From the NCBI GenBank assembly GCA_964459995.1, contig CAYWOR010000009.1, positions 36,891 to 100,890 on the forward strand: a stretch of 64,000 nucleotides of DNA. Reading direction: 5' to 3'. The position numbers and the translations under genes were made by a program. This stretch comes from an uncultured bacterium. Lineage in GTDB: Bacteria; UBP14; UBA6098. Shown one piece after another: positions 16,378 to 64,000 of this stretch (its first letter is position 1; the number at the start of each line of letters is the position of its first letter). The notes under the pieces were generated by a model, which saw nothing but the letters and a program-made list of their open reading frames with translations, did not search any database and had not been told where the DNA came from.

Positions 16378-17304
16378 ATGAGACAACATAAATTAATCAT
16401 AGCCGCATTGATACTCCTTCCGATTGTCGCTTTCGCACAGGCGAAGGTGGGCACAGCGGCGGCCCAGTTTCTCGAGATTCCCGTCGGCGCACGTTCGGTG
16501 GGTATGGGCGACGCCTTCTTAGCTACAGCTAATGACGTCTCCGCGATATACTACAACCCCGCAGGGCTAACTAACCTTATGCGTAAAGAGGTTATGTTTA
16601 CGCATACAATGTGGCCTGCCGGCATAATGCACGATTTTGCGGCTTTTGCCATGCCAGTTCCTCAACTGGGCGGTGTAGTAGGCATTAGCGCAATCGGCCT
16701 TACAACAGGCGAGATGCGTGAGACCACTCCGGGACGGCCAGAAGGAACCGGAAGGACATTCACCGCAAGCGATCTCGCGGTGGGGGTTACATATTCACGA
16801 AAAATGACCGACCGTTTCTCGTTGGGCGTTACATGGAGATATGTGGGTGAGTATTACGCCGATGTCAAAGCTCATTCTTGGGCGATGGATATCGGAACTC
16901 TTTATCGCACACAGTTCAAGAATCTCCGTATCGGAATGAACTTCTCGAATTTCGGGCCGGATATTACCTTCCTTCAAACACCGTATCCACTACCTATGTC
17001 TTTTAAAATGGGCGTGGCGGCGGAAGTCTATGAAGCCGGAGCGCACAAAGTTACTCTTGGCGCTGAGGGAAGCCATCCAAACGACAATCTCGAGAAATTT
17101 CAAGTGGGGGCGGAGTATTGGTTCAATAACATGTTCGCAGTTCGCGGCGGTTATCGTTTCGGTGCATGGGATGCAGAGCGGTTCAATGCCGGTATTGGCG
17201 TTAGATTGCCGGTCGGAAATGTCATCACCAAGATAGATTATGCCTACAGCGACATGCAGGAATTGCTTAATGCTCACAAATTCACCCTTGGACTGGAATT
17301 TTAG
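16378..17304 (+). CDS. PorV/PorQ-family (FadL-like) outer-membrane beta-barrel protein, T9SS-associated
   Basis: 308 aa; signal peptide; the N-terminal motif AAQFLEIPVGARSVGMGDAF resembles PorV/PorQ (UPF0164) family proteins; ends in an aromatic residue (LGLEF). Confidence 0.45.
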   Translation: MRQHKLIIAALILLPIVAFAQAKVGTAAAQFLEIPVGARSVGMGDAFLATANDVSAIYYNPAGLTNLMRKEVMFTHTMWPAGIMHDFAAFAMPVPQLGGVVGISAIGLTTGEMRETTPGRPEGTGRTFTASDLAVGVTYSRKMTDRFSLGVTWRYVGEYYADVKAHSWAMDIGTLYRTQFKNLRIGMNFSNFGPDITFLQTPYPLPMSFKMGVAAEVYEAGAHKVTLGAEGSHPNDNLEKFQVGAEYWFNNMFAVRGGYRFGAWDAERFNAGIGVRLPVGNVITKIDYAYSDMQELLNAHKFTLGLEF

Positions 17305-44059: not shown

Positions 44060-46293
44060 ATGAAGAAGATCCAAATTTTGTTTGTGGCCATTATAAGCCT
44101 TTCTCAAGCGGTTTTGGCGCAGAGTGTAACAATGAACATCCCCAAAGATCCGATAGGTATTGCCGAGGATATTATTGCCCCGGTCTATGAGATCAAATCA
44201 CCGGAAACTACCGATTTGCATCGAAGATTTCACATGATGACTCCGCTGGATTCTATTTTTATCGAGGTTGTTCTGCCGCCCGGGGCTTATGCGGCGATTT
44301 ATGTTGATGTAACCGCCGAAAGCATCGCCTATTGCAACCCCCCAGAGTTACCATTGGACAGCGCGATGAAATATTGGGTCGAACACTCTCCATATGGCCT
44401 AAAGCTTCAGCTCGAGCAGAACCTCGCCGCTCTAAATCCTTCTTACTATTCGATTTATGACGATTTGCTCCGCAGTGCAGATCCTCTTTGGCGCGATGAA
44501 ATTCTCTATTGCCTCGCTCATCTTGCCCGCGAGATTCTCGAACTGCCGGAGATGAGTTTTCTTCTCGATGAGAATGTTCGCGGAATATATGCAATGGATT
44601 CTCTGCTTTCCTATGTCGAGATTATCGACCTTGGCACTCCGGGAGGAGGCGATCATCGCACAGAGGCGCATTATCTCACAATAGACACGGGCATGGTAGG
44701 ATATGAGACGATCGTCTTGGATTCCGAGATGTATTATCGATATGTCATGTTCCCTAAAATAACCGACGAGATTCCGGGATATATCGAACCGCACACCGGC
44801 GACAGAATCGACCCTTGGTATGGCTGTTTCTGGCGGACGTGGTTTTGGGATATCGAGGAAACAATCGGAGGGACTTATTATTGGCCGCTTGGAGATTCGC
44901 TTTGCCGTGTTTCGACGCTGTGGAGCGGTATTTTCAATAATGCCGCCGATAATGGTGCTGTCGGAGTGGTTACCTCATGGATTCAGAACAGTCTCGATTT
45001 CGATTCAGATGCCGAAAGACCGCATCAGCCGGTTCGAATCTACGCAAAACACAAAGGAAGATGCGGCGAACACGAGGATATAACTGTCGCCGCGGCACGA
45101 ACCGCGCTTCTTCCGGCGAGAGGCATCGAATCGATCAGCACCGACCATGTTTGGAACGAATTCTGGACAGGATGGCGTTGGGCGGGTTGGGAACCGGTCA
45201 ACAACTATGTCGATCATCAGTGGGTCTATGCCGACGGCTGGGGAAAAGAGTTCGCGACAGTGTATGAACATACCGGCAAAGGTAGAATGGAGCCGGTTAC
45301 AAGAAGATACTCCCATGAAATCGCGGAGATAAACATCACCGCGACAGATGCAGTCGGAAGACCTGTCGATGGTGCAAAGCTTATGATTGCCGCAGAAAGC
45401 GGGACATCTATTTATTACGACTGTATTCTCTTCACCAATAGCAGAGGCAAAGCCAAAGCGGTCGTCGGTGACAACAAGCATATGTATTACAGAGTTGATT
45501 CTGAGATTGGATGTAATCCCGAACCGGGGTTTGTGTCGAACCTTGTTACAAATACGATGGACGGAATCGTTTACAGCCGGACAGCCTCGATTCCTGGGAA
45601 TATGCCATATCACACCTATTCTTTGGCCGACAGCACAGATTCTCCGACTGCATATTTAGGCGCGCGAGTTCGACCGGTTGGTGAATTCATCGAGTATGCC
45701 GCACCATTCGATGATATTTTAGCGACATATTATCACTGGGAGGATGATGCCTACGGCTACGCCCTATTCGCTCTCACAGAGGACCAATTCCCTATTTTCG
45801 AGTCAGGAGGGGATTTCGCCGCTTTGATTATGCATGAGCGTTGCGACTTCGCTTCTTTCGAGATTCCGGTCGAAAATAGCGGTTATTGGATTGTTCTTTC
45901 CAATCGTGAGAATGTTAAGAATACCCTTGTCGGCGAATTGGCGGTAATGCTCCATCGGACTTCGTCAGGAATACCCTCGACGGAAATGCCGGTGAATATC
46001 TCTCTCGGTGCATATCCGAATCCTTTCAATTCCGCGGTTAAGATTGTTATCGAGGGGGGGCGGATTTGAAGAAAGAGGCCATAACGATTGAAATCTGCGA
46101 TATAACCGGACGAAAAGTAGATGAGATTAGAATATCCGGTTCGAATTTCGATCCTGCCTTTGGGGCTTCTCGAAACGGAGGCAATCTCGAATTCATATGG
46201 CAACCTTCGGAGTCAACACCCTCGGGAGTTTATCTAATTCGTGCGAAGATCGGCAAAGAGACACATACCAAACGCGCGATATTATTGAGATAA
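44060..46293 (+). pseudogene. secreted transglutaminase-like protein with T9SS C-terminal sorting domain, interrupted by a -1 frameshift at a G7 homopolymer
   Basis: Signal peptide; transglutaminase-like core (HKGRCGEHEDITVAAART...DHVWNEFW). The CTD begins ...YPNPFNSAVKIVIEGG in the 44060..46069 frame and continues EAITIEICDITGRKV...VYLIRAKIGKETHTKRAILLR in ORF 46066..46293. One extra G in the 46054-46060 run restores a single ORF. Confidence 0.7.
46054..46060 (+). repeat. poly-G (G7) homopolymer at the frameshift site
   Basis: GAGGGGGGGCGG seen directly; G8 would give in-frame ...IEGGADLKKEAITIE... Confidence 0.9.
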
Positions 46294-46378: not shown

Positions 46379-46879
46379 TTACCTGCGAATAGCCTCTCCA
46401 ATAGACCATTCGAGAGTTGCCATGTTCCGAATATATGCGCTGTCGGGCAAAAGAGGGGGGACGGAAACACTATCAACAATGTTGCCCTCTGTATCGAAAA
46501 GCCCCACCCATTCGCCATCTGCACTGATACGGAAACCGGCGTGATTGGATCCCTGTTCGGGTTGTCCATCGCACCATATTAGCATTGTCGAATCAGACAA
46601 AAGCGACGTTGGTGCGGGGAATACATATCGAATCGAATCTGGTCTATCAGAAAGAACCCAACCGCTGAGTATTACCGAGGTGTCTTGTGGGTTGTAAATA
46701 ACTACAAAATCGTCGAATTCTCCGAACTCGTCAGCTTCAATTGAGGTGTTATTGGATACGATTTCGATCATATAGACTGTGTGCCAAACGCTCGGTGGCT
46801 CGGAATCCGGTTTGTATGGCGATTTTGTGCATCCAAAAAATAGGATAACAGCCGAAAGTATGGGGAAAAGCGCTCTCAT
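46379..46879 (-). CDS. lamin-tail-domain (LTD) lipoprotein
   Basis: 166 aa; lipobox FFGCTK; LTD-like core (IEIVSNNTSIEADEFGEFDDFVVIYNPQDTSVILSGWVLSD...IRYVFP); last gene of the operon. Confidence 0.55.
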   Translation of the reverse strand: MRALFPILSAVILFFGCTKSPYKPDSEPPSVWHTVYMIEIVSNNTSIEADEFGEFDDFVVIYNPQDTSVILSGWVLSDRPDSIRYVFPAPTSLLSDSTMLIWCDGQPEQGSNHAGFRISADGEWVGLFDTEGNIVDSVSVPPLLPDSAYIRNMATLEWSIGEAIRR

Positions 46880-47805
46880 TAAAACCTCGCTGAAGCTTGA
46901 ATTTTCAGTTCAGAGCGTGGCGAATCACTTTCGATAAAGCTTGTCTGCGCACATAAGCGAGTTTTTGTTGTCGGATCGAAAGCTACGCCGAGATGTGCCC
47001 GATTCTCCGAATCCGATTCTTCGGAAATGCTTTCGTAATGAACATAAGGGGTGAATTTACCGATGGAATATTTAACCCAAGCCTGCCAACCTTCGAATTC
47101 TTCACCGCTGAGAATGCTATTTCCGGTTATAAATTCACCTCCGAATTCGCCACCCAAGTATTGGGCAATTGTGCCGATTTCCCACGCATTTCGCCATTCG
47201 AGGCCGAGGCTGTCGATTCCGGTTCCGAAAGAACCGACGATATCTATAGATTTGGTCGGCGAATAGATTAGTCTTCCGGAGAAATGCTTCTCGCTGGTGC
47301 GGACATCATAGTCCCTTCCGTTGAAAAGCCCGAAGTCATACTCGATTTGATATGGTTCCTGAAAGAATTTTCCAATGATCCATGCGCCAATATCTCTGTC
47401 GAGATAGCCGGTGTCATCGAGAAGTGCGTGAACTTCGCTCCAATCAGCAGATGGCGAGTCGTTTAAACCAAGTAATTCTTCGATTCCGAAGGGTTTGCGT
47501 CGTCTTCCGATTCCGACACTAAATGCCCTGCTTTGTTTCCATTCGATATAGGCATCCCGAAGGCCGGCAAAGCTCGAATTAAGGTCGAAAGATAACCTTG
47601 TAGAAATTAAAAGGCTGTCCTCCGAAATGAAATCGGCATCTAATTTTGCACGGATTCTTCGAAGATAGAACTCGTTATTTGGATAAATCTCGCGTGAATC
47701 CCATTTCCATCCGGCAATAACCTCACCGCCGACATCGATATCGACCTTAGCAGTAACAAATCCGCAAAACAGAATGAAAGAAGCAATAAAAAGCCGAGGG
47801 TTCAT
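46879..47805 (-). CDS. porin-like outer-membrane beta-barrel protein
   Basis: Start at MNPRLFIASFILFCGF (signal peptide); alternating amphipathic beta-strand pattern; C-terminal ...IQASARF with an aromatic terminus; 4-nt overlap with the upstream gene. Confidence 0.5.
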   Translation of the reverse strand: MNPRLFIASFILFCGFVTAKVDIDVGGEVIAGWKWDSREIYPNNEFYLRRIRAKLDADFISEDSLLISTRLSFDLNSSFAGLRDAYIEWKQSRAFSVGIGRRRKPFGIEELLGLNDSPSADWSEVHALLDDTGYLDRDIGAWIIGKFFQEPYQIEYDFGLFNGRDYDVRTSEKHFSGRLIYSPTKSIDIVGSFGTGIDSLGLEWRNAWEIGTIAQYLGGEFGGEFITGNSILSGEEFEGWQAWVKYSIGKFTPYVHYESISEESDSENRAHLGVAFDPTTKTRLCAQTSFIESDSPRSELKIQASARF

Positions 47806-48695
47806 TGTTCGATTTCCATATCGTCTATTTCGGAGGATTTTTCGCGTTTCCACGCGATGCGAAGAATATCAGCGCTGTTCAATTCCTCAGCTACGTTGTT
47901 TCTATCGATATTCCCGGAAATCTCGACCTCGATCTCTGTTTGATCTTTCTCGGGTCCGCGGTCGCTTCTTACTCGCTTGATTTTATATACGATGTCATCG
48001 TCGTCGAGAAGATCTTTAATCTGGGTTAATGTTGCATCCGGATTCGTTGTTCGGACACGCAGGTTCCAATTCCAATTTGTTGAGAATAATGATTTTTTGA
48101 GACCTTTTGGCATATGTTCGAAAAGGAACACCATCGCGACGATATAGAGCGTTACAATAATCGCCAAAGGATACAGCCCGACTCCGCATGCCATGCCCAC
48201 ACCGAGCGCTATTACCAGCGAACTTGCCTCTTTAGGGGATTTAAGTGAATAACGATAGCGCACGATCGACGCCGCGCCCATAAGCCCAAAAGCGCGTGCA
48301 ATCTGGCTTCCGATAATCATCATCATAAGCGCCGCGGCAATCGAGAGAACGATATGCGCCTCGGTGAAATCCATCTGTGCCTTCCCGCCGCCGCTCCGGT
48401 AGCTTATTAGCCCCGATAATACGGATGTAAGCAGAAGGGTTGCGAGAATATTTAGTGCACTGCTCCAGTCAGTGTTCCAGAGCGGTTTCAGAGGAGCTCC
48501 GCCCTCCGCCGGAGGGCCTTCGGATCGGGTCTGTCCCGATGATGAGGAGAAAATCGAATCGACAGTCTGCGCGAGCAGAGTAGTTGAGATATCAATTCTG
48601 TCGAAAAGCTTCCCATGACCAAGTAAAGCAATCATCGCGATAATCGCGAGAATTATCAAAGCAGTTCCCCAGAAACGCGAATGGATTAATTTCAT
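47802..48695 (-). CDS. DUF4956-like integral membrane protein
   Basis: 297 aa; 4-5 TM helices followed by an acidic C-terminal soluble tail; resembles the DUF4956 family that co-occurs with VTC/polyphosphate-related genes; ATGA overlap with the upstream gene. Confidence 0.45.
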   Translation of the reverse strand: MKLIHSRFWGTALIILAIIAMIALLGHGKLFDRIDISTTLLAQTVDSIFSSSSGQTRSEGPPAEGGAPLKPLWNTDWSSALNILATLLLTSVLSGLISYRSGGGKAQMDFTEAHIVLSIAAALMMMIIGSQIARAFGLMGAASIVRYRYSLKSPKEASSLVIALGVGMACGVGLYPLAIIVTLYIVAMVFLFEHMPKGLKKSLFSTNWNWNLRVRTTNPDATLTQIKDLLDDDDIVYKIKRVRSDRGPEKDQTEIEVEISGNIDRNNVAEELNSADILRIAWKREKSSEIDDMEIEQ

Positions 48696-50677
48696 AATAG
48701 AAGCCCGCTTTTCGCTCTGTCGCTCTTTGTTTTAAGCCTTTCGGCGCGATTTCTGTCAACGAGAACTGTCAAGCCGAACTCCTTCTCGAATAGGTCCTTT
48801 TTGTTCAAAACCGATTTCCGCTCGGCTTTTGCGGAATTGACAGAATTCAAATCCAATATAATCGAGTTCAGCTCTCGCGACAAACGCAATTTCAAAACAA
48901 TCTGTTTATCGGAGGAATCGAGCGCATCTGCGACGCGAAGTATTCCGGCGAGTTTTCTTACCGCGAACTGCTCTTCGGCGCGAAGTTTCCATTGACGCGG
49001 ATTATCGAGCGACTTTTCCGAACCGTTATGATATAATGCACAGATTGCTATTATTCGCTTTTCTCGGTCGGAAAGGCGTGAGAATTTATTATCCATAATG
49101 ATTCGATAGCTGTGCATTTCGTGTTCGTCGCCCATTGACCGGCCAACATCGTGAAGAAGCGATGAATACTCGAGAAGCCGCCTTGCATTATCATTTAAAC
49201 CGTGGATATCCACAGTGGCGTCGAATATCTGAACCGCGAATCCTCGAACTTTTTGGGCATGCTCGAAATAGCCGTTATGCGCATGATAAAGTTCGAGCAC
49301 CTCGCGAAGTTCCTTATCGATAGCTTTCGTCTTCGGATCGATCCCGATTGTGCCGGCGACGATATCGATAATCGGCGCATAAAGCTCGGAGGGGTCTTCG
49401 TTTTCAGCGACAATAGGTATTCCGTCGGCTTCTGCAAACGGTTTATAAAGATTCGACATCTTTAAATCGGTGTTATCTGGGCAGTCGATAAACACCGCGG
49501 CATCCGGCCTGTAAGCAAAGCCTTTCAGATTTTCGACCAACCAATCTCTGTCAAAGTTTGATGACAGACAATCCGCAAATGCCGAATAGAAGGAGTCTTT
49601 GAGGATTACAATTTCGCCGCGTTCCAGAGCGGGGATTACCTCGGTATCCATAAGATATGCCATCTCGCTTAGAGAGAGCATTACTTTCTTAATCGGTGTA
49701 ATCGCGCCTTTTTCTTTGGCCGGAATGATAATCTCGGAGGTTATCCAGCTTTCTCCGGCACCGGTTTTTGCCACCCCGATGTTTCTTATCTGAAGCCAGT
49801 CATAAAGTGCGTTGACCTGATGTGTGATAGCTTCTTTATTGCATCCCTCGATTGTTATGAGTTTGCCGGGCAAGTTGTGCGGGGGGAGTTCGCTGATTAA
49901 TCCGGAAATCTGGTGTTTTTTAAGATCGTCATGGTAAAGGGTTCTATCCTCTATTTGCGATCGAATGTGAAGGGGTTTTTCATCTGGAGATTTGTCGAGC
50001 TTTTCGAGAAAAGGCTCGATTTTTTCGATTATTGAAGCGAAAATCTCGTCCACATTACAATTCATACAGATAGGACTTAATTCTCCGCTTATGACCAAAC
50101 TCTGATATACCTTATCGACCCTTCCCTGAAATTCTCTGAAGGATTCCGCCGGATCGCTTTCACCGGAAACATCCATTCCGCATTCGTAGTATTTCGGCAC
50201 ATTGCCGTTTTTCTTCATAGAGCGACTTAGGGCAATATCAATCGGAAGATCGCACAAGAATGCAATGTCCGGTTCGATAGCCAGAGAATATATCCTTTTG
50301 ACCCATTCGATATCGACTCCACGGGCTTCATCGCGGGCGAGGGCAGTGTAGGAATACCTGTCTGCGATGACGATTTTTCCCTCGTTCAGCAAAGGTATGA
50401 TAAGGTTCTCATGCCTATTGAGAAAATCGGCGGCATGAAGCGCGCTGAAACATGAAGGAGTAAGAAGGTGAGCCTTTTTTGCACGTTTAGTAGCTCGGCT
50501 GATGTATCTACTGGAATTCCAAGTTGTAACCTCAACCGAATATCCCTTTTCTTCGAGATAATTTGCAAGCCGTTTAACCTGCGTGCTTTTCCCCGCGCCG
50601 TCCAAGCCCTCGAAAACTATTAAAAGTCCCGGACGGTTTGCTATTTTCTCATCAGCATGTATCGTTGGATTTGTCAT
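48692..50677 (-). CDS. fusion protein: thymidylate-kinase-like domain (intact P-loop) + second thymidylate-kinase-like domain (degenerate P-loop) + C-terminal HD-domain resembling the Ppx/GppA C-terminal domain
   Basis: 661 aa. Domain 1 has LLIVFEGLDGAGKSTQ and a DRY motif; domain 2 has ITIEGCNKEAITHQ with GKS lost; C-terminal LLHDVGRSMGDEHEMHSYRI...ALYHNG is an HD-type hydrolase motif. Confidence 0.6.
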   Translation of the reverse strand: MTNPTIHADEKIANRPGLLIVFEGLDGAGKSTQVKRLANYLEEKGYSVEVTTWNSSRYISRATKRAKKAHLLTPSCFSALHAADFLNRHENLIIPLLNEGKIVIADRYSYTALARDEARGVDIEWVKRIYSLAIEPDIAFLCDLPIDIALSRSMKKNGNVPKYYECGMDVSGESDPAESFREFQGRVDKVYQSLVISGELSPICMNCNVDEIFASIIEKIEPFLEKLDKSPDEKPLHIRSQIEDRTLYHDDLKKHQISGLISELPPHNLPGKLITIEGCNKEAITHQVNALYDWLQIRNIGVAKTGAGESWITSEIIIPAKEKGAITPIKKVMLSLSEMAYLMDTEVIPALERGEIVILKDSFYSAFADCLSSNFDRDWLVENLKGFAYRPDAAVFIDCPDNTDLKMSNLYKPFAEADGIPIVAENEDPSELYAPIIDIVAGTIGIDPKTKAIDKELREVLELYHAHNGYFEHAQKVRGFAVQIFDATVDIHGLNDNARRLLEYSSLLHDVGRSMGDEHEMHSYRIIMDNKFSRLSDREKRIIAICALYHNGSEKSLDNPRQWKLRAEEQFAVRKLAGILRVADALDSSDKQIVLKLRLSRELNSIILDLNSVNSAKAERKSVLNKKDLFEKEFGLTVLVDRNRAERLKTKSDRAKSGLLL

Positions 50678-50695: not shown

Positions 50696-52762
50696 TTATT
50701 TCAAATAGATAATTTTTTTCACAACTTCACTATTCTCTGAAACTACTCGAACATAGAAGACGCCGGAGCTTGTTTTTTCATTGGGGTTCCAAACAATCTG
50801 CCTGCGGTTATTGCCGGGAGAATCTTCGCATATGTCCATTACAGCCGAATTGTTCAAATTAAGATGATCTATTTGCCTACCTGAGATGTCGAAGATTTCG
50901 ATGCTCTCGATTCGCATTTCTGTGCCCTCGATTTCGATACGACAAGACGAGTTGAAGGGATTTGGGTAGGTTAACAGAGTTAAACCTGTCGGAACCGACA
51001 GGCCATTTGAATATATTGCCGACCATGAATTTTCCGCACCGGGTGTGGCTTCGAGGCAAATCTGCCATGTTGCGCTTCCATTGGGATATCTGCCCCAGCT
51101 TTCATCACGTTCCAAACCCATCCACGAAACGCTGTCGGATAATTGTGCGCCGATAAAATCCGAACCGAAAATAGCCAATTCCTCCTCATCCTTATTGAGT
51201 TTGAAAGTTGCATGAAGAGGTCCCTGTCCGGGGTCGTCATCTGCCCAAACCACCAGATAACCGCCTGCTGGGATCACCGTTCCGGACGGAAAACTCCACT
51301 TTCGCGGGTTTGATAAATTGTCGGTGGCAAACCAATAAGAGATGTCGATAGTTGTATCGGCTGGATTGTAAACCTCGAACCAGTCGTCGAATTGATCGGC
51401 TTCATCTGCTATTGTAGAGCCGTTAGAAGCCATAAGCTCGTTTATTAAAACAACACCGGAGACATCGAGCCTTTCGCAACCTCCGACAACACCTGCGATA
51501 TATGCATATCTGTCCATGATAAAATCCCTGAGGCCCGGGATTGTTCCCATTCCGCCTCCGCCACCGCCCCCGCCCCCGCTGGAGTAATCATAATCGAGAT
51601 TTGTCTCGAAAGCCGCATTGGAGAACTGTTTGTTAACATCGTCATAAACATAAGGTCGAACGAGATCGGCAAGTTCAGTTACTCTCGCGTTGAAAGTTAC
51701 TGTATCGAGAGTTGTCTCCATCAGCTCTCGAATAGCACAATTTACAAGCCCCCAAAAAGGCTCCCAGTTTTCGAAACATCTTTTAGCCAGAGGACGTCCG
51801 CTACTTCCGGGGGGAAAGCCTCCACCGGTGCTATACCAATCGATACGCATCTCACGCATACCAGTAGCCGAAAGACCTGAATTATATCCCCCAAAGGCCA
51901 TATTGAGGTCATAAACGATATAGCGGGCTATGTTGTTTGAATCGAAATAGAGGAAATAGTTACTTCCCGCGCCGGGGTAGCTGTTCAGATTGACAATGAA
52001 AGTATTTGCGGCCCACATACGAGCGAATGTAATCGCATCGAACCGGTCGAGCAGTTCGGACGAAAAGGTAGTATTATCTGTATTATTTAGAAAATTGATG
52101 AAGTTAAGCAGGTCGCTCCAATCCTCGTCCAGATTAGTCTCCTTTTCATAACCTCCATAGGAGGCTGGATCCCAGCCTTGCCACGTCAGAGGAGCGTTTT
52201 CGTCGCAATTATACAACCCCCCGCTTTTTTCACTGAAAAAGAGTGTCAACGCGTCTTTGTTCACTGGAGTAACAACATTATAAAATCCCCAGTAAATATC
52301 GTTGTAATACACGACACAGAAAGCGGAGCGAGAACATGGAACGTTCAGTCCCTGAAATATCTCGCAGGAAAGGTGTTCCCGAAGAAAGGTCGGGTCGTTA
52401 TAGCAGTTAGAGAAAGTAAGCCGTTGGTTCCCTCTATAGCTCCTTTTATCGATATATTCGTCGATTTTCAGATGAAATGGTTTCTTGTTGCCCGGATGGT
52501 TGAAGGAACTGAATCCCTTCAATCGAATACCGACGCTGTCCAATGTATCGACGGCATCGAAAACGACCTTGCACATTATGTATTCTTCGGTGGTATGTGT
52601 GGCGTAAAGCTCTGTCCAATAGCTGGGATTATCGAAGTAAACATGAACGGTATGGACGGTATCGCCAAAATAATCCCCGAATACAGATGAAATAAATAGA
52701 AGGGAAAATAAGGCGACTAAGAATGAATATATTTTTCCGGCTTTCAACATTTGAAGCTCCAA
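50696..52762 (-). CDS. CotH-kinase-family protein with lamin-tail domain and T9SS C-terminal sorting domain (paralogue A)
   Basis: 688 aa; signal peptide; CotH blocks (NDPTFLREHL...VYYNDIYWGFY, NYFLYFD...YIVYDLNMAFG); a GGGGGGGGG linker; LTD (LINELMASNG...WFEVYNP...YWFATD); CTD (YPNPFNSSCRIEIEG...VFYVRVV...KKIIYLK). Confidence 0.75.
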   Translation of the reverse strand: MELQMLKAGKIYSFLVALFSLLFISSVFGDYFGDTVHTVHVYFDNPSYWTELYATHTTEEYIMCKVVFDAVDTLDSVGIRLKGFSSFNHPGNKKPFHLKIDEYIDKRSYRGNQRLTFSNCYNDPTFLREHLSCEIFQGLNVPCSRSAFCVVYYNDIYWGFYNVVTPVNKDALTLFFSEKSGGLYNCDENAPLTWQGWDPASYGGYEKETNLDEDWSDLLNFINFLNNTDNTTFSSELLDRFDAITFARMWAANTFIVNLNSYPGAGSNYFLYFDSNNIARYIVYDLNMAFGGYNSGLSATGMREMRIDWYSTGGGFPPGSSGRPLAKRCFENWEPFWGLVNCAIRELMETTLDTVTFNARVTELADLVRPYVYDDVNKQFSNAAFETNLDYDYSSGGGGGGGGGMGTIPGLRDFIMDRYAYIAGVVGGCERLDVSGVVLINELMASNGSTIADEADQFDDWFEVYNPADTTIDISYWFATDNLSNPRKWSFPSGTVIPAGGYLVVWADDDPGQGPLHATFKLNKDEEELAIFGSDFIGAQLSDSVSWMGLERDESWGRYPNGSATWQICLEATPGAENSWSAIYSNGLSVPTGLTLLTYPNPFNSSCRIEIEGTEMRIESIEIFDISGRQIDHLNLNNSAVMDICEDSPGNNRRQIVWNPNEKTSSGVFYVRVVSENSEVVKKIIYLK

Positions 52763-55700
52763 TTGTTGTATAACGCAATTATTTCAAATAGGTTATCTTG
52801 ATTATTTCGGAGTTTTCACTCGATTTGATTTTAACCAGATATATTCCCGAACTGAGCGTTTCGTCCGGTCTCCAGCTGACAGAATGGCGATTTGAACCCC
52901 CACTCTTGTTATCGTCCGCGCAAAATTCTCCTAATAATAACCCGTCAATTTTTTTGCCGGTAATATCGAATATTTCAACACTCCCATCCCTTAACCCACC
53001 ATTCTCGATTTCAATTCGCACCGAGGAATTGAAAGGATTCGGATAGGCGGAGAGACGTAACTCGCCGGGAAGAGGCGAATTTTCTTGAACAACGAAGCTC
53101 CAGGCATTCACGGCACCGGGTGTGGCTTCAAGACAAATTTGCCATGTTGCGCTTCCATTTGGATAACGTCCCCAACTGCTGTCTCGGGGCATATCTGCCC
53201 ATGAAACCGAGTCGCAAAGTGTATTGCCATAGAAATCCGGCCCGAATAGCGCGACCTCCTCGCGGTCGGCATCGAGTTTGAAACTTGCATGAAGCGGCCC
53301 CTGCTCGGCGTCGTTGTCAGCCCAGATAAGTAGATAACTATCAGGGGCGATAATCGTTCCATTAGGGAGAGTCCATTTACGCGGTTCGGTTATGTCATCA
53401 GTCGCGAACCAGAAAGACAAATCCACCGCCGTATCCGCCGGATTGTAAAGCTCGAACCAGTCGTCGAATTCCCCCTCCTCGTCGGAAATGGTCGTCCCGT
53501 TCGATGCCATGACCTCATTAATTAACACAGCACCTGCGACATCGACGGCATCGCAGGGCATGAGAACGGAAGAGATGTATAATCCTCTATCGTAGATGAA
53601 GTCCCTAAGCCCGGGAATAAGGCCTCCACCGGGGGGAGGGCCTCCGCCGATATCGTCGTTGAGGTTAGTCTCGAAGTTGGCGTTGCTATACATCTTGTTC
53701 GGATCGGCGTAAACATAGGGGCGGACTAAATCCGCGAGTTCTGTTACTCTGTCCGAGAAAGTCGAGTATTCCAGTGTTGTCGATAAAAGTTCGTGCAAGG
53801 CGCAATGGACTAATCTTGTGAAAAGAGGGTAGTCGCTGAAAAGCCTTTGAGCCAGAGGCCTGTTCGATGAATGCCAGTCGATTGCGAGGTTGCGCATCGC
53901 TGTGCCGTTCATGCCCATAGCGAAAACGCCGAAAGCTTCGTTAATATCCCAAACGATATATCTTCCGATGCCGTCGGAATCGAAATATAGATAGTAATTA
54001 TGTCCCGAACCCTGATAGCTGTCGAGGTTCACTAAGAATGTGTTCGCCGCCCACATTCGAGCGAAACTGAACATGTCGAACCAATCGTGCATTCCCGCCC
54101 GAAAATCTACCGCAGATGTATTATTGATGAAATTACAGAACCCGACGAGGTCGCTCCAATCGTCGATATCCTCGTTTGTAGATTTCTCGTAACGGGTTCT
54201 ATATGGCCCATCCGTAGCGCCAAGCCACTCAAAGGTGCCGCTTGGGTCGCCTTTATAAAGATTAGCGTCGTTTTCTCCGAAAAAGCGGGTTAACGCGTCT
54301 TTATTGATAGGATCGACAACAGTGTAAAACCCCCAATAAGTATCGTTATAGTAAACAACAGCCCATGTCGCACGAGGACATGGCACACCGAGACCTCTGA
54401 ATATCTCGCTCGCAAGCTTCTCGCGAAGGAATGTCGGGTCTTTGAAACAGTTATTGAATGTCAAACGCTCGTTGCCGCGGTATTCTCTTCCGCCGATATA
54501 TTCGTCGATTTTGAGATGAAAGGGCTTTTTGTTCCCCGGATGTCCGAAAGAGCTGTTGCCTTTGAGGCGAATTCCCACGCTGTCCAATGTATCGACAGCA
54601 TCGAAAACGACCTTGCACATCATGTATTCTTCGGTGGTATGTGTGGCGTAAAGCTCTGTCCAATAGCTGGGATTATCGAAGTAAACATGAACGGTATGGA
54701 CGGTATCGCCAAAATAATCCCCGAATACAGATGAAATAAATAGAAGGGAAAATAAGGCGACTAAGAATGAATATATTTTTCCGGCTTTCAACATTTGAAG
54801 CTCCAATTGTTGTATAACGCAATTATTTCAAATAGGTTATCTTGATTATTTCGGAGTTTTCACTCGATTTGATTTTAACCAGATATATTCCCGAACTGAG
54901 CGTTTCGTCCGGTCTCCAGCTGACAGAATGGCGATTTGAACCCCCACTCTTGTTATCGTCCGCGCAAAATTCTCCTAATAATAACCCGTCAATTTTTTTG
55001 CCGGTAATATCGAATATTTCAACACTCCCATCCCTTAACCCACCATTCTCGATTTCAATTCGCACCGAGGAATTGAAAGGATTCGGATAGGCGGAGAGAC
55101 GTAACTCGCCGGGAAGAGGCGAATTTTCTTGAACAACGAAGCTCCAGGCATTCACGGCACCGGGTGTGGCTTCAAGACAAATTTGCCATGTTGCGCTTCC
55201 ATTTGGATAACGTCCCCAACTGCTGTCTCGGGGCATATCTGCCCATGAAACCGAGTCGCAAAGTGTATTGCCATAGAAATCCGGCCCGAATAGCGCGACC
55301 TCCTCGCGGTCGGCATCGAGTTTGAAACTTGCATGAAGCGGCCCCTGCTCGGCGTCGTTGTCAGCCCAGATAAGTAGATAACTATCAGGGGCGATAATCG
55401 TTCCATTAGGGAGAGTCCATTTACGCGGTTCGGTTATGTCATCAGTCGCGAACCAGAAAGACAAATCCACCGCCGTATCCGCCGGATTGTAAAGCTCGAA
55501 CCAGTCGTCGAATTCCCCCTCCTCGTCGGAAATGGTCGTCCCGTTCGATGCCATGACCTCATTAATTAACACAGCACCTGCGACATCGACGGCATCGCAG
55601 GGCATGAGAACGGAAGAGATGTATAATCCTCTATCGTAGATGAAGTCCCTAAGCCCGGGAATAAGGCCTCCACCGGGGGGAGGGCCTCCGCCGATATCGT

Positions 55701-56679
55701 CGTTGAGGTTAGTCTCGAAGTTGGCGTTGCTATACATCTTGTTCGGATCGGCGTAAACATAGGGGCGGACTAAATCCGCGAGTTCTGTTACTCTGTCCGA
55801 GAAAGTCGAGTATTCCAGTGTTGTCGATAAAAGTTCGTGCAAGGCGCAATGGACTAATCTTGTGAAAAGAGGGTAGTCGCTGAAAAGCCTTTGAGCCAGA
55901 GGCCTGTTCGATGAATGCCAGTCGATTGCGAGGTTGCGCATCGCTGTGCCGTTCATGCCCATAGCGAAAACGCCGAAAGCTTCGTTAATATCCCAAACGA
56001 TATATCTTCCGATGCCGTCGGAATCGAAATATAGATAGTAATTATGTCCCGAACCCTGATAGCTGTCGAGGTTCACTAAGAATGTGTTCGCCGCCCACAT
56101 TCGAGCGAAACTGAACATGTCGAACCAATCGTGCATTCCCGCCCGAAAATCTACCGCAGATGTATTATTGATGAAATTACAGAACCCGACGAGGTCGCTC
56201 CAATCGTCGATATCCTCGTTTGTAGATTTCTCGTAACGGGTTCTATATGGCCCATCCGTAGCGCCAAGCCACTCAAAGGTGCCGCTTGGGTCGCCTTTAT
56301 AAAGATTAGCGTCGTTTTCTCCGAAAAAGCGGGTTAACGCGTCTTTATTGATAGGATCGACAACAGTGTAAAACCCCCAATAAGTATCGTTATAGTAAAC
56401 AACAGCCCATGTCGCACGAGGACATGGCACACCGAGACCTCTGAATATCTCGCTCGCAAGCTTCTCGCGAAGGAATGTCGGGTCTTTGAAACAGTTATTG
56501 AATGTCAAACGCTCGTTGCCGCGGTATTCTCTTCCGCCGATATATTCGTCGATTTTGAGATGAAAGGGCTTTTTGTTCCCCGGATGTCCGAAAGAGCTGT
56601 TGCCTTTGAGGCGAATTCCCACGCTGTCCAATGTATCGACAGCATCGAAAACGACCTTGCACATCATGTATTCTTCGGT
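52531..56679. repeat. period-2044-bp direct tandem repeat (about 2.03 units; essentially identical except 2 mismatches near the 5' ends of A/B)
   Basis: The sequence at x and x+2044 is identical across 52779-54635 vs 54823-56679, and near-identical for 52531-52778 vs 54575-54822. Duplicated antisense ORFs sit at constant +2044 offsets in the ORF track. Confidence 0.85.
52779..54806 (-). CDS. CotH-kinase-family protein with LTD and T9SS CTD (paralogue B; chimeric: A-like 5' end, C-identical body)
   Basis: 675 aa; the first ~65 codons are near-identical to paralogue A; the remaining ~610 codons are identical to paralogue C. Confidence 0.75.
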   Translation of the reverse strand: MELQMLKAGKIYSFLVALFSLLFISSVFGDYFGDTVHTVHVYFDNPSYWTELYATHTTEEYMMCKVVFDAVDTLDSVGIRLKGNSSFGHPGNKKPFHLKIDEYIGGREYRGNERLTFNNCFKDPTFLREKLASEIFRGLGVPCPRATWAVVYYNDTYWGFYTVVDPINKDALTRFFGENDANLYKGDPSGTFEWLGATDGPYRTRYEKSTNEDIDDWSDLVGFCNFINNTSAVDFRAGMHDWFDMFSFARMWAANTFLVNLDSYQGSGHNYYLYFDSDGIGRYIVWDINEAFGVFAMGMNGTAMRNLAIDWHSSNRPLAQRLFSDYPLFTRLVHCALHELLSTTLEYSTFSDRVTELADLVRPYVYADPNKMYSNANFETNLNDDIGGGPPPGGGLIPGLRDFIYDRGLYISSVLMPCDAVDVAGAVLINEVMASNGTTISDEEGEFDDWFELYNPADTAVDLSFWFATDDITEPRKWTLPNGTIIAPDSYLLIWADNDAEQGPLHASFKLDADREEVALFGPDFYGNTLCDSVSWADMPRDSSWGRYPNGSATWQICLEATPGAVNAWSFVVQENSPLPGELRLSAYPNPFNSSVRIEIENGGLRDGSVEIFDITGKKIDGLLLGEFCADDNKSGGSNRHSVSWRPDETLSSGIYLVKIKSSENSEIIKITYLK

Positions 56680-56826
56680 TTCGTGGGTTTCATAAAGTTC
56701 TGTCCAGAAACCTGAGTCGTCGAAATAGACTCGCACGGTATGAACTGTATCGCTAAAATAGCTCGCTTGTGCTGTTAGAATTGTTGAAAATGCAAATAGG
56801 ATAGCGAATTTGAAGAGCTTTCTCAT
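54823..56826 (-). CDS. CotH-kinase-family protein with LTD and T9SS CTD (paralogue C)
   Basis: 667 aa; its own signal peptide (MRKLFKFAILFAFSTILTAQA); CotH blocks (KDPTFLREKL...VYYNDTYWGFY, HNYYLYFDSDGIGRYIVWDINEAFG); LTD; CTD ending IIKITYLK. Confidence 0.75.
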   Translation of the reverse strand: MRKLFKFAILFAFSTILTAQASYFSDTVHTVRVYFDDSGFWTELYETHETEEYMMCKVVFDAVDTLDSVGIRLKGNSSFGHPGNKKPFHLKIDEYIGGREYRGNERLTFNNCFKDPTFLREKLASEIFRGLGVPCPRATWAVVYYNDTYWGFYTVVDPINKDALTRFFGENDANLYKGDPSGTFEWLGATDGPYRTRYEKSTNEDIDDWSDLVGFCNFINNTSAVDFRAGMHDWFDMFSFARMWAANTFLVNLDSYQGSGHNYYLYFDSDGIGRYIVWDINEAFGVFAMGMNGTAMRNLAIDWHSSNRPLAQRLFSDYPLFTRLVHCALHELLSTTLEYSTFSDRVTELADLVRPYVYADPNKMYSNANFETNLNDDIGGGPPPGGGLIPGLRDFIYDRGLYISSVLMPCDAVDVAGAVLINEVMASNGTTISDEEGEFDDWFELYNPADTAVDLSFWFATDDITEPRKWTLPNGTIIAPDSYLLIWADNDAEQGPLHASFKLDADREEVALFGPDFYGNTLCDSVSWADMPRDSSWGRYPNGSATWQICLEATPGAVNAWSFVVQENSPLPGELRLSAYPNPFNSSVRIEIENGGLRDGSVEIFDITGKKIDGLLLGEFCADDNKSGGSNRHSVSWRPDETLSSGIYLVKIKSSENSEIIKITYLK

Positions 56827-57116
56827 AGCTGTATCCTTTTCAAAGTCTCATTGTTTCAATGTGATAAAGCCTCGGCGGCTCTATCAATATTAGGACTTCT
56901 TTTTTCAATTTAAGTTTAGTCATCTTTTTTAAAAACTCATATTTTTTTAACAATATGTTAACAAAATTGAATAGTCAAATGACAACATTTATCGAATTGC
57001 GTTTCTTCACGATGTCTAAGTCTATTTCCCGCTTGATTATCCCGCCTATATCGATATAATATTGTCAAGTTGCGTCGGTTTGGCCGATGCAGTGAAATAG
57101 ATGGATTGGAGACGAT

Positions 57117-59407: not shown

Positions 59408-62400
59408 TCAATCCTTCGGTAAGTCGAGATGCGGTTTCATATCCATGTTGTTATTTGGAAGTTGTGGTAATGTTTCGTGGATATCTGAAGGTGCAGAAGT
59501 TTTATCGTGCTCGACCTTTCTGAGCCAATCATCTTTTGACATATTGCAATCTTCCCAGTCTTGATCTGTCATAGAGGCGGGATCGGATAGATATTTTTCG
59601 AAGGCGGCTTCGAAAGCTATCGCTTCCGCGCTCTTCGGCTGTGGTTCGAAAGATAGACGGCTGTAATCCCAATGGATCGGCCTTGCGGAATCTTCGGTGT
59701 TGCGTTCATCGAACATGACTCCGCGCATGTTGGCATCGTAGTCGGAAGCGAGAATTTCATCGGGCACGTTCACGCCTTCTTCATACCCTTCCTGAATAGC
59801 GGTTGCCATCCAGTTAATGCTGAGATTACTGCGACCTTCGTTGTTTTCGACTATAGTAAATCCGTCTTTTGTGATGTCAGTAACATAGACCCCATTGCTG
59901 GCTCCGAGAGGAGTTGCTGTAACAATAATAGGCTTGGCGACCGAAACCAAATTCGAGAAATCGCGGTCGAAAACTACTCTGCATGTTCCATCGACCAGTT
60001 CGGTCATTCCGCATGTATTTATTGTGACTTCGTTGCTTATTGATGAATACATGACAGATTTTGTTCCTCGCGATGACTGCCTCACAAACCCCTGCACACC
60101 GTTCGTGTATGAATCGCCATCAGTATATAAAGCATAACGGGGGCCTCTGAGATGAAGTCCGTAAACCTCTCCGCGCAACCATCCGCCCATGAACGATGAA
60201 TATGCCCCGAAGCCCATACCTTCGCGTTTCTCACCGATATAACTACGGGTATCGTCAGCCTCGGGACGTCTACGACCGCTTCCGGAACCAGTTCCTCCTG
60301 CAAAGTATGCTCCATAGGTTGTTCCTCCGCTGTTTCTATAACCTAATGATGCCCAAGAAGTTGGTGAAGTTGCGGCACCCAAGACACCCATAGCGCCTCC
60401 GGTTCTATTAGAAGCAGAATTTGCTACTCCGAAGGTTCCAAAGGAATACGATCCGCTGTCATTTCTGCCTTGGACACCCTGTCTTGAGTGGTTGTAGCCA
60501 TAGTTTGTTCCATTACCACTGCCGCTAATCTCACCGCGGATGGCCCTGTAATCTGAGAATTCCACAAATGCGTCTGTATTCCATGCATCAAGTCCTTCAC
60601 CGGAAGTTCCTATGTAGGCGTAATGGTTGCCTTCATAATGGCGGGCATATGCGCCATATGAATAACCACCTAAATAACCATAACTTCCGGAATAGTTATA
60701 TCCGTAAATAGCGTATGAAGAACCTGCGAGATAGCCGTATGTTCCGGCATCATATCCACCATATACACCATAGGAGCTTCCGCCAAGATAACCGTAATAC
60801 CTTGTTCCGTTCGTATTCTCGCCAAAAACTGCCATCTGTCCGGCAGTGGGTGTAACCGAATGAACAGTATAGGTTGGCGCAGTCGTTCCCACGCCAAGGA
60901 TATTGCCAACATAGACATTTCCACTTGAGAAATAACCCGCCCAGTTGGTTGTGCCGCCGGAAGCAGTGGCGTAGATGCCATAATGGGTTGCGCCGGCTAC
61001 CGATGATCCAGCGTTAAAATATCCACCGTAAGTATCTCCCGAACCGGGTGAATAACGGTAAGCATAAGAATAAACGCCGTAGTTAACGCTGTTCGAATAA
61101 CTATATGCGTAGAATTGTCCTCCATAGTTCGTATATCCAGCTGAACCATTTCCGTTTTGGTAGGCATAGACAGTTATCCCTCGGTTATCCCTCGACGCTG
61201 AGTTGGAACGGAAATATCCTGCGAAATTATAACTTGGGTTGCCAGTTCCGGTGAAATTCGCTTCGGCATATATGCCGTAAGAGTTAGAATTTGATGTAGT
61301 GTGTTTGAAATACCCTCCATATCCTTCTGCACTGCCGGTATTCATATTAGAATAGAATCCATATGTATGGGTTTGGACATCGGCGACTTGGAGGTTCGTT
61401 CCAATGCCTCCGCTTGGGTAGAGATAATTTCCTGCATCTGTCCAAAGACTGCCACTGGAGGGTAAATCCGCCCAATATGCAGGACTGGAACCATTGGAAG
61501 TGAGAACTTGCCCTGCAGTTCCATTACTGCTGTTTGCCGAAAGGGTGCCTGTGAGATTGAAATTCTGGGAATACACAGTGCCCCATCTGTTGCCACTGGT
61601 TCCAAGATCGTATCCGCTAACATCGGGGCGAAGATAGGTTGACCAGACCCTCATAACATTAGAGCCACCGTATGCAAGGTAGAAACCTGAGCCGTCGATG
61701 TTATAGGAGCCCATATTTAAGTTTGTTGTTGCTGTATGGTTTCCAAGATTATCACCGGGGAATGTGCCGCTAACAGTCAAATTGCCTGTGATGTTGACAT
61801 TGCCCTCAAAATAGCCGGCGTATGTCCCTGTTCCTTGGCTTCCCCAGACACCGTAGCCTCTTGTATCACCGAGAGTTCCACGCTGAGAGGAAGAACCGTA
61901 GGCGTCGCCGTATGCACCAGACCAAGTCGATCCGACCCCAATTACTTGACCGCCAAGATAACCTGTTTGGAAACTATTATACCCATAAACCGCCCAATCG
62001 TTACTGATACCGGATGAGATATACCCATAAACACCGTAATCGCTAGAGCCGCTGGGCGCGCCTTGTGCTTGACCATAAACGCCGTAGTTACTTGTTGTCG
62101 TGGAAGCGGCTCTTCCATATAAACCATAGGCTTGTCCGCTTTCGTAAGCTCGAACATAGTCGTTACCTACTACCCTTTTATATACTCCTGCATCCTCCCA
62201 TTGGGGGGTCGAGCTTGTAGGGGCATCAATCCAATTTGTCCCCGAACCGGTGCTTGAAAGAATCTGTCCGCTGGTTCCGGCATCGCCGGAAGTGTCGTAA
62301 TACCTTCCGGTAACTTGAATATCACCGCCGAAATAGCCTGCCAAGCCTGTTGCACCGGTAACATGAATACCATCGCCGCCAACAGTAAGTATTTCAACAC

Positions 62401-64000
62401 CATGGTCACCGGTATTCGTAATATAGACACCGGAGTTTGTGGGATTTGTGACGAATATGCCGTGTCCTCCGGCATTGTATGCCCCGATACAGCTCCATCC
62501 CGATGGTGAACCGGTTACTCGTAAACCATTTATTGAGCCGCTGGCAGGTCCGATTATATCGACCCTTGCATTTGTAGGTGTCGATGTTCCAATTCCAAGT
62601 CTCGTATTAGTGTTATCCCAATGGAAGTTGTTCGAACCGCCGAAAGCGCCGGAGTTATTAAATTGGACATTGCCGTTTACGCCCGCAGGAGATCCACCGG
62701 AGGGCCAAGAGGTGATATAACTTCCGTTGAGCTGTATTCCACCTGTAACTTCGAGGTCGTTTTTTACGAAAAGATCGCCGTCGCCGTCTGCACGCAACGC
62801 CGTGCCGCCATCACCGATCCACACTAATCCACCTTGGAAATAACCGGCATAGCCGCCGGTATTGTCGGCATTAGCGAATAAAGCGGCGTCACCGGGGGCG
62901 GCTGATGTATAAGAACCGTCATGAAGCACAGCGCTCACCGCGGTTCTTCGATAGCCTTGTGTTGCATTTACATCTGCGGCGACACCGTAAAGATAGCCAT
63001 TAGCGGTTGTGCTCATCGCTGTTGCTTGAACACCCCTAATCGCAAAATTTGAAGATCCCGTGTTATATCCAATTCCGTAAACACCCCATTGATTACCGCT
63101 TGCACCTGAGCTATAACCATATACGCCAGCTCTATAGCCACCGGGAGTATAACCCAGGCCGCCGAAACAGTTGCCGTCATATTTTCCAATAACACCAGCG
63201 CTTTCTCCGTTTGCTACTACTTCGAGCTTTGCGGTTGGTAATGTTGTTCCGATACCGACATTTCCATTCGATTTGAGGACATATAAGCTCGGTTCGGTAA
63301 CATCGGCGCTTCTGAGGCTCAATGCTGTTCCGCTGGAAACTGTGGAAAGAAGGAATTCATCGGTTGTTCCGCTTTGGAAACGCATTCTCGCAATTGCTCC
63401 GCCGCCACCGCGACGAAGATAAAAATCGATATCGTCGTTTGTCGATTGGAGTGCGAAACTGCGGGCGCTAGAGCCCCAAATATGCAGATTTGTGCTCGGT
63501 GAGGTTGTCCCGATGCCGATATTGCCGGTAGTTCCCTTTATGGCCATCCAGGTTGTAACACCTCCGACAGTCGAAAAATAAAGGTCTCTTCCATTTGCTG
63601 AGCTTGCTTCTGAGCTTTGTATGTAGTTTGCAGTCGGGCCGATGTGCAATCTCAACCTTCCATCGTTGCTTCTCGCCTGAATGTAAGAATCGGAGGGGTC
63701 TGAACGATAGACATCGAGAGGAATCAAAGGCGTAGTTGTGCCGATACCGAGCCGCTGGTTTACACCATCGAAATGCGCATAGGGCACTGCAGTTGCTGTT
63801 TGCACCTGAGTGTATGGCCCGCGAAGTTTGATTCCTTCGGCGGACACGAGAATCATCTGGTCGGTCGATACGATGTTTTGGTCGGTGGCGGTGGCGTAAA
63901 TATCGATATAGCTCGAAGCATCGCCGTAGAAATAGCCGTGCCCGTTTATTCTAAAATTGCCTGTCTGAGTCGATGCCGATTGATTCTGAATATAATCTCC
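59408..64000 (-). CDS. giant Gly/Tyr/Ser/Thr-rich repetitive surface protein with tail-fibre-like [IL]GIGTTxP repeats (partial; N-terminus beyond window)
   Basis: The reading frame stays open upstream of the listed ATG (63856) all the way to the window edge, giving at least 1530 aa. Repeated LGIGTTTPLIPLDV / IGIGTTSPSTNLHIWG / VGIGTTLPTAKLEVV / LGIGTSTPTNARVDIIG motifs and dozens of xYG(V/A)YGY units are present; the C-terminal ~250 aa are non-repetitive. Confidence 0.6.
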   Translation of the reverse strand, partial: GDYIQNQSASTQTGNFRINGHGYFYGDASSYIDIYATATDQNIVSTDQMILVSAEGIKLRGPYTQVQTATAVPYAHFDGVNQRLGIGTTTPLIPLDVYRSDPSDSYIQARSNDGRLRLHIGPTANYIQSSEASSANGRDLYFSTVGGVTTWMAIKGTTGNIGIGTTSPSTNLHIWGSSARSFALQSTNDDIDFYLRRGGGGAIARMRFQSGTTDEFLLSTVSSGTALSLRSADVTEPSLYVLKSNGNVGIGTTLPTAKLEVVANGESAGVIGKYDGNCFGGLGYTPGGYRAGVYGYSSGASGNQWGVYGIGYNTGSSNFAIRGVQATAMSTTANGYLYGVAADVNATQGYRRTAVSAVLHDGSYTSAAPGDAALFANADNTGGYAGYFQGGLVWIGDGGTALRADGDGDLFVKNDLEVTGGIQLNGSYITSWPSGGSPAGVNGNVQFNNSGAFGGSNNFHWDNTNTRLGIGTSTPTNARVDIIGPASGSINGLRVTGSPSGWSCIGAYNAGGHGIFVTNPTNSGVYITNTGDHGVEILTVGGDGIHVTGATGLAGYFGGDIQVTGRYYDTSGDAGTSGQILSSTGSGTNWIDAPTSSTPQWEDAGVYKRVVGNDYVRAYESGQAYGLYGRAASTTTSNYGVYGQAQGAPSGSSDYGVYGYISSGISNDWAVYGYNSFQTGYLGGQVIGVGSTWSGAYGDAYGSSSQRGTLGDTRGYGVWGSQGTGTYAGYFEGNVNITGNLTVSGTFPGDNLGNHTATTNLNMGSYNIDGSGFYLAYGGSNVMRVWSTYLRPDVSGYDLGTSGNRWGTVYSQNFNLTGTLSANSSNGTAGQVLTSNGSSPAYWADLPSSGSLWTDAGNYLYPSGGIGTNLQVADVQTHTYGFYSNMNTGSAEGYGGYFKHTTSNSNSYGIYAEANFTGTGNPSYNFAGYFRSNSASRDNRGITVYAYQNGNGSAGYTNYGGQFYAYSYSNSVNYGVYSYAYRYSPGSGDTYGGYFNAGSSVAGATHYGIYATASGGTTNWAGYFSSGNVYVGNILGVGTTAPTYTVHSVTPTAGQMAVFGENTNGTRYYGYLGGSSYGVYGGYDAGTYGYLAGSSYAIYGYNYSGSYGYLGGYSYGAYARHYEGNHYAYIGTSGEGLDAWNTDAFVEFSDYRAIRGEISGSGNGTNYGYNHSRQGVQGRNDSGSYSFGTFGVANSASNRTGGAMGVLGAATSPTSWASLGYRNSGGTTYGAYFAGGTGSGSGRRRPEADDTRSYIGEKREGMGFGAYSSFMGGWLRGEVYGLHLRGPRYALYTDGDSYTNGVQGFVRQSSRGTKSVMYSSISNEVTINTCGMTELVDGTCRVVFDRDFSNLVSVAKPIIVTATPLGASNGVYVTDITKDGFTIVENNEGRSNLSINWMATAIQEGYEEGVNVPDEILASDYDANMRGVMFDERNTEDSARPIHWDYSRLSFEPQPKSAEAIAFEAAFEKYLSDPASMTDQDWEDCNMSKDDWLRKVEHDKTSAPSDIHETLPQLPNNNMDMKPHLDLPKD

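Follow-up and report, generated by a model that had tools for sequence, protein, structure and literature searches.

Hybrid genes arise by unequal crossing-over between tandem paralogues, familiar cases being the haemoglobin anti-Lepore arrangement (delta, beta-delta hybrid, beta) and the red/green opsin arrays. Here we describe a bacterial array of three genes encoding CotH-family proteins, named C, B and A in their 5′ to 3′ order, in which the middle gene appears to be such a hybrid. The array lies on contig CAYWOR010000009.1 of an uncultured bacterium of the UBP14 lineage; the stretch analyzed, positions 36,891 to 100,890 of the contig (64,000 nucleotides, nt), is referred to as the window, and all coordinates are those of the window. 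In bacteria, RecA-dependent and reversible tandem duplications that are polymorphic in populations have been described in Burkholderia thailandensis, where 208.6 kilobases (kb) between insertion sequence (IS) elements are duplicated (PMC9946442), and transformation stimulates the formation of merodiploids by tandem duplication in Streptococcus pneumoniae (PMC3784515). On balance, and with moderate confidence, we favor a real but non-fixed tandem duplication of 2,044 base pairs (bp) that arose by unequal exchange between the paralogues C and A and left B as a hybrid at its novel joint. Events of this type are well known and ordinary, and the understanding of duplication mechanisms is left unchanged. 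The three genes, with their open reading frames (ORFs) and protein lengths in amino acids (aa), and the two copies of the repeat unit are the following.

54823..56826 (−): paralogue C, 667 aa, with its own signal peptide MRKLFKFAILFAFSTILTAQA; Pfam domains PF08757 (E 1e-56), PF00932 and PF18962
52779..54794 (−): hybrid gene B; ORF 52779-54806, with 671 aa counted from the probable ATG at 54794; all three domains intact and in frame
50696..52750 (−): paralogue A, 684 aa from the ATG; ORF 50696-52762, probable ATG at 52750; the same three Pfam domains as C
52578..54621: repeat unit copy 1, 2,044 bp, made up of nt 1-173 of A, the 28-nt spacer and the part of B from nt 174 to the stop codon, as delimited by the exact self-match
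54622..56665: repeat unit copy 2, 2,044 bp, made up of nt 1-173 of B, the 28-nt spacer and the part of C that begins at nt 162 and runs to the stop codon

When the window was compared with itself at an offset of +2044, the longest exact self-match was 2,058 bp (52578-54635 = 54622-56679). This exact run is longer than the period of 2,044 bp, so that 2.007 units follow one another head to tail without a spacer between them; chance cannot account for such a structure. The initial annotation, made from the sequence alone, had reported exact identity at this offset for 52779-54635 against 54823-56679; this segment is confirmed and lies inside the longer run, which adds 201 bp to it. A further stretch of about 250 bp had been described as near-identical with two mismatches; the similarity is there, but the copies are exact from 52578 upward and the 47 nt below that point (52531-52577) hold three mismatches, at 52532, 52553 and 52577. 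On the far side, the copies diverge from 54636 and 56680 on, in agreement with the divergence point at 56680 given earlier. Outside the repeat, self-identity falls to about 70% below 52578 while remaining in register (52201-52500), which is the older paralogy of A with B and C, and to 50-76% above 54636, again older paralogy, compared with about 25%, the random level, in the rest of the window. A repeat search of the 64-kb window recovered three in-register copies with a spacing of 2044 and no other long repeats. Tandem Repeats Finder returned no rows, which is no evidence against a 2,044-bp repeat because the longest period that it handles is 500.

The architecture of the three proteins is shared. 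In Pfam, each combines three domains, CotH (PF08757), lamin-tail (PF00932) and type IX secretion C-terminal sorting (PF18962), with PF08757 scores of 169 bits for A and 193 bits for both B and C against a cut-off of 23.8, and the CotH proteins match CotH of Bacillus cereus (PDB 5jd9, E 4e-15). A is about 58% identical to C by tblastn. The relationship of B to its neighbors is of a different order: its first 173 nt are of the A type and encode the signal peptide MLKAGKIYSFLVALFSLLFISSVFG, and the remainder is identical to C. Accordingly, B begins with the N-terminus of A (MLKAGKIYSF...), whereas C keeps its own (MRKLFKF...), and the alignment bears out the previous description of B as the signal-peptide-encoding 5′ end and upstream region of A placed on the body of C, with the 5′ end of C left distinct. 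Signal peptides and cleavage sites of the three proteins were assigned by eye only and are presumed; on this assignment the mature forms of B and C are distinguished by 9 of 647 residues, all of them near the N-terminus. The gaps between C and B and between B and A measure 28 nt each, from stop codon to ATG.

The position of the joint was determined in a five-sequence alignment with columns counted from the ATG, and two further features are needed to describe it.

54622..54635 (−): novel joint, 14 nt common to A, B and C (alignment columns 160-173), with equivalents at 52578-52591 in A and 56666-56679 in C
52533..52591 (−): 59-nt conserved patch in A, encoding TEEYIMCKVVFDAVDTLDSV; 57 of 59 positions identical to the patch of C at 56621-56679; the patch of B is at 54577-54635

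B matches A exactly from the spacer up to and including column 173, and its match to C is exact from column 160 onward to the stop codon, with A-specific bases on the 5′ side of the joint and C-specific bases on its 3′ side. The overlap between these two spans confines the exchange to 14 nt. These 14 nt open the 59-nt patch, which encodes TEEY(I/M)MCKVVFDAVDTLDSV, and the alignment places the exchange within the homology that this patch provides. There is thus a single novel joint, it lies in sequence common to both parental sites, and both the register and the reading frame are kept across it. Perfect identity between A and C in the patch comes in short blocks of 14 and 23 nt, the latter being the longest. 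The central block of the patch is 95-97% identical at the nucleotide level between A and C of one genome, compared with 79-82% for orthologues from different lineages and 79% for the gene pair of a distant relative (L025), and amino-acid conservation is equal in these comparisons. This pattern suggests that an older small exchange, that is, a gene conversion between A and C, homogenized the patch.

Comparison with other assemblies of the same population, which the initial annotation had proposed as a check, provides the evidence on the state of the locus before the extra unit. Same-strain contigs were retrieved via two neighboring genes and come from MEGAHIT assemblies of three samples in ENA, namely ERZ27252305 (L026), ERZ27252296 (L027, a contig of 124,997 bp) and ERZ27252304 (L028). 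In all three, C (667 aa) is followed directly by A (684 aa), and only these two genes are present. A further 21-23 contigs with an essentially equal neighborhood were counted; L026-L028 are those that were compared. With 52578-54621 deleted, the window aligns with 0 gaps and at 100.000% identity to 21,986 bp of L026 and to 16,884 bp of L027 and L028. The sole difference between the window and these same-strain contigs over the compared spans is therefore one 2,044-bp unit, the removal of which restores an existing haplotype. Two genes are also found in a sister lineage represented in three JGI metagenomes (L022-L024, about 98.7-98.9% nucleotide identity), and the distant relative L025 has two genes as well. 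As the two-gene state is common to same-strain contigs and relatives, the event amounts to the gain of one unit, and since same-strain assemblies carry the single-unit form, the duplication is not fixed.

Public records agree with this distribution. Proteins identical to those encoded in the window are P0121 for C, P0122 for B and P0013 for A; exact A and exact C are each found on 9 contigs (NCBI, JGI, Logan and ENA), and exact B on 1 contig (NCBI, 100,890 bp). The nearest homologue of C, P0001, is 99% identical to it and belongs to a cluster with two more members, while the clusters at 90% identity of both A alleles have one member each. A search of metagenome contigs with A for related loci yielded only the distant L025, and a scan of genome contigs with C gave nothing closer than 66% identity among the representatives searched, to which the species thus does not belong.

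We propose that the ancestral locus would have consisted of two tandem, co-oriented paralogues, C followed by A, encoding secreted CotH-family proteins. In one unequal (non-allelic) exchange, the 5′ patch of A on one copy of the chromosome would have paired with the patch of C on the other, and resolution within the 14 shared nt would have given a product with one extra 2,044-bp unit and hence the order C, hybrid B (leader of A plus body of C), A. B would then be a third cistron, nearly a second copy of C, expressed behind the signal peptide of A. As the end points of the duplication lie inside the two paralogues, the chimera arises automatically and no separate conversion event is needed. On this proposal the extra unit would be present in cells, and its maker would be homologous recombination, not RecA-independent template switching on the same short homology. 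The genes of the array may be co-transcribed, and gene dosage may matter.

Several observations weigh against this account, and most of them favor instead an assembly artefact, in which the genome would have only C followed by A and the assembler, or a merging or re-assembly stage after it, would either have walked the path made of the C body and the A 5′ end twice or merged two overlapping contigs through the 59-nt patch, which is 97% identical between the paralogues. Every same-strain contig that could be retrieved has a single unit and otherwise does not differ from the window, and B occurs on one public contig only. The two copies are exactly identical, as happens when an assembler uses one path twice; because such identity is expected of a twice-used path too, it is uninformative on the age of the event. 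The joint coincides with the only site at which merging by overlap could mis-pair A with C. A 50-mer across the junction has no match in the JGI metagenome contig collection, and at least three same-strain MEGAHIT assemblies run straight from C through A, which indicates that in those samples the joint is either absent or a minor variant. The homology is a separate difficulty for unequal exchange: with a longest perfect match of only 23 nt, RecA would hardly act efficiently, and in the absence of selection the event would be expected to be rare.

The sequence of the joint argues in the opposite direction. Words of at least 16 nt that span column 159 (with the A-specific base C) and column 174 (with the C-specific base G) are absent from A and C of both lineages, and a k-mer graph cannot make the joint from parental genes without reads that contain these words. 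Nor is there a third allele on record that could supply them, the clusters of A having one member each; a third A allele or a mixture of two lineages was considered as their source and rejected, as the A of the sister lineage differs from B at columns 159 and 171 and the clusters hold no further allele. To our knowledge, unitig assemblers cannot emit a repeat longer than k, and hence no exact repeat of 2 kb. From general knowledge of assemblers, the contig must then stem from one that resolves loops by coverage, read pairs or long reads and that needs some evidence for a loop. The in-frame and in-register character of the joint is expected under both explanations and does not discriminate between them. 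Taken with these points, an artefact is a serious contender, but we consider it clearly the less probable of the two. In practical terms, copy number should be read from kilobase-scale exact repeats in metagenome-assembled contigs only after validation at the level of reads.

A real duplication might also have been produced by another route, either RecA-independent template switching on the identities of 14-23 nt or uptake of self-DNA that paired alternately with both patches. The perfect homology (blocks of 14 and 23 nt) is indeed short enough for template switching to be considered, a transformation-induced merodiploid model is documented in S. pneumoniae (PMC3784515), and the imported divergent segment of A described below borders the same patch, which implies that the locus took up foreign DNA before. 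The import in A is nevertheless older than the duplication, because all single-unit contigs already carry it, and the sequence contains nothing that would separate these routes from RecA-mediated exchange; we regard them as improbable. The weakest alternative, gene conversion of a pre-existing third paralogue B whose body was overwritten by C or whose 5′ end was overwritten by A, would suit the mosaic look of B and the signs of older small conversion in the patch, but it is very improbable, given that no relative or same-strain contig (L022-L024, L025, L026-L028) has a third gene, that a single 2,044-bp unit accounts for the whole difference between the window and the same strain, that conversion leaves length and copy number unchanged whereas the window is longer by one unit, and that one uninterrupted head-to-tail identity spans the ends of both genes together with the 28-nt spacer. 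The initial annotation had left open an unequal crossover, a gene conversion and an artefact; its exact tandem duplication, its chimera and its view of a very recent event or an assembly product stand, and the gene conversion falls with the two-gene state of the relatives.

Gene A has two further features of note.

51768..52523 (−): segment of A divergent from the sister lineage, about 760 bp (nt ~228-983), 48-87% nucleotide identity
51983..51985 (−): codon AAC, Asn256 of A, at the position of the catalytic-loop Asp; the corresponding codon is GAC in B (54021-54023) and in C (56065-56067)

Outside the divergent segment, nt 1-173 and nt 984 to the end of A are 95-100% identical to A of the sister lineage. 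In the protein, identity is 67% over amino acids 58-340 and 93% and 98% in the flanks. No closer donor for the segment was found, with none above 64% among 20 other nearest family members, and the kinase core of A looks like an imported cassette from an unsampled donor. A mobile element or a diversity-generating retroelement was rejected as its origin, since the segment measures about 760 bp, all base types are changed and there is no repeat or element nearby. The left border of the mosaic falls in or immediately beside the patch used by the duplication. The earlier proposal that the array is a hotspot for shuffling of copy number and 5′ ends thereby gains modest extra support, because the joint, the mosaic border and the high identity between A and C coincide at one patch; its copy-number part depends on a single contig.

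Among 123 aligned sequences, namely 122 family members and CotH of B. cereus, 122 have Asp in the catalytic-loop column, the sole exception being A of this strain. The Asp of the NLDSY motif aligns with D224 of B. cereus and that of the WD motif with D247; the spacing of 23 between D224 and D247 equals that between D228 and D251 in Bacillus subtilis, where the D228Q and D251A variants of CotH are catalytically inactive (PMC7821199). Both conserved Asp residues are present in B (D258 and D283) and C (D254 and D279), whereas A lacks the first of them (Asn256) and is, judging from this substitution, probably catalytically impaired in this strain. The loss of a catalytic Asp in one paralogue of one strain constitutes a testable lead. 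An extension of this idea to a functional turnover, in which A has a foreign core without the catalytic Asp and B, with an intact C-type core after the leader of A, compensates for it or raises the dose of active enzyme, making the duplication a reversible and selectable copy-number polymorphism of a natural population, is speculative and, in our estimate, unlikely.

The surroundings of the array comprise an upstream intergenic region and a co-oriented run of genes downstream of A, identified from the ORF map and from Pfam, respectively.

56827..57116: intergenic region of 290 bp between C and a divergently oriented carboxylase-subunit gene
48692-50677 (−): fusion of a thymidylate-kinase-like domain with Ppx/GppA domain III and HD domains
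47802-48695 (−): DUF4956/MgtC-like membrane protein
46879-47853 (−): porin O/P-like protein
46379-46879 (−): small lamin-tail-domain protein

The 290-bp region is the likely promoter region of the array, as it is the only sizeable non-coding stretch upstream. Promoter-like sites numbered 21, against 17.4 ± 3.7 in shuffled sequence, and terminator-like sites 20, against 12.6 ± 3.9, so that an excess over shuffled sequence is not clear; no terminator-like sites were predicted in the 28-nt gaps between C, B and A. The order of the downstream run (46379-50677) is kept in the close relatives L022-L024 and L026-L028. The run presents a nucleotide/phosphate theme beside the secreted kinase-like proteins.

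Components of type IX secretion are encoded in the window, namely SprA (31804-37833, 2,009 aa) and a PorV-like protein (16378-17304). Together with the presumed signal peptides and PF18962, this machinery makes A, B and C putative type IX secretion cargo. A 52-nt inverted match (79%) connects the 3′ end of a transglutaminase-like gene (44060-46069, +), at 46003-46054, with the CotH genes at 53004-53055 and 55048-55099; its location, the YPNPFNS motif of the C-terminal domain for type IX secretion, identifies it as shared domain sequence and not as a structural repeat. On the other side of the array, a very large ORF (59408-63856, −) without a Pfam match encodes 1,482 aa in the window and 1,900 aa in L027 (12292-17994). 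Its neighbor combines CarboxypepD_reg domains with a tail for type IX secretion. The window also carries the ordinary chromosomal genes purD, ispG, glmS, glmM, lpxD and lexA, and it is chromosomal DNA; GlmS is closest to proteins named candidate division Zixibacteria, the top match being 87% identical, which points to an uncultured bacterium from this candidate phylum or related to it.

If the duplication is real, the array would be a clean natural case of tandem paralogues in an uncultured bacterium yielding in-frame hybrid genes and copy-number variants through very short homology, with the pre-duplication haplotype of the same strain on record for comparison.

Compared with Bacillus CotH (PDB 5JD9/5JDA), B and C keep the catalytic loop with its Asp and Asn and the second Asp at Bacillus-like spacing. 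Unlike the Bacillus protein, those encoded here have lamin-tail and type IX secretion C-terminal domains in addition and are predicted to be secreted in a non-sporulating lineage, and gene A has Asn at the position of the catalytic Asp. With the mis-resolution or collapse of tandem-repeat loops in metagenome assemblies, the locus shares identical copies and the presence of the repeat in one assembly but not in other same-strain ones; it differs from them in a specific novel joint sequence that neither parental gene supplies. In the anti-Lepore and opsin arrays, as here, diverged tandem paralogues mis-pair in register and both parents are kept around the hybrid, and the anti-Lepore hybrid starts as the downstream gene and ends as the upstream one, which corresponds to the order found here (C, A5′/C3′, A). 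The reciprocal deletion product (C5′/A3′) is not on record, the cluster of P0013 having one member. Unlike in those arrays, the setting is a bacterial, operon-like array and the homology is limited to about 59 nt. With the duplications of B. thailandensis and S. pneumoniae, the locus has in common a head-to-tail arrangement, a single novel joint located in repeats and the coexistence of single-copy and duplicated forms; it departs from them in that the repeats are coding paralogues and not IS elements, the unit is 2 kb and not 100-900 kb, and the joint makes an in-frame gene.

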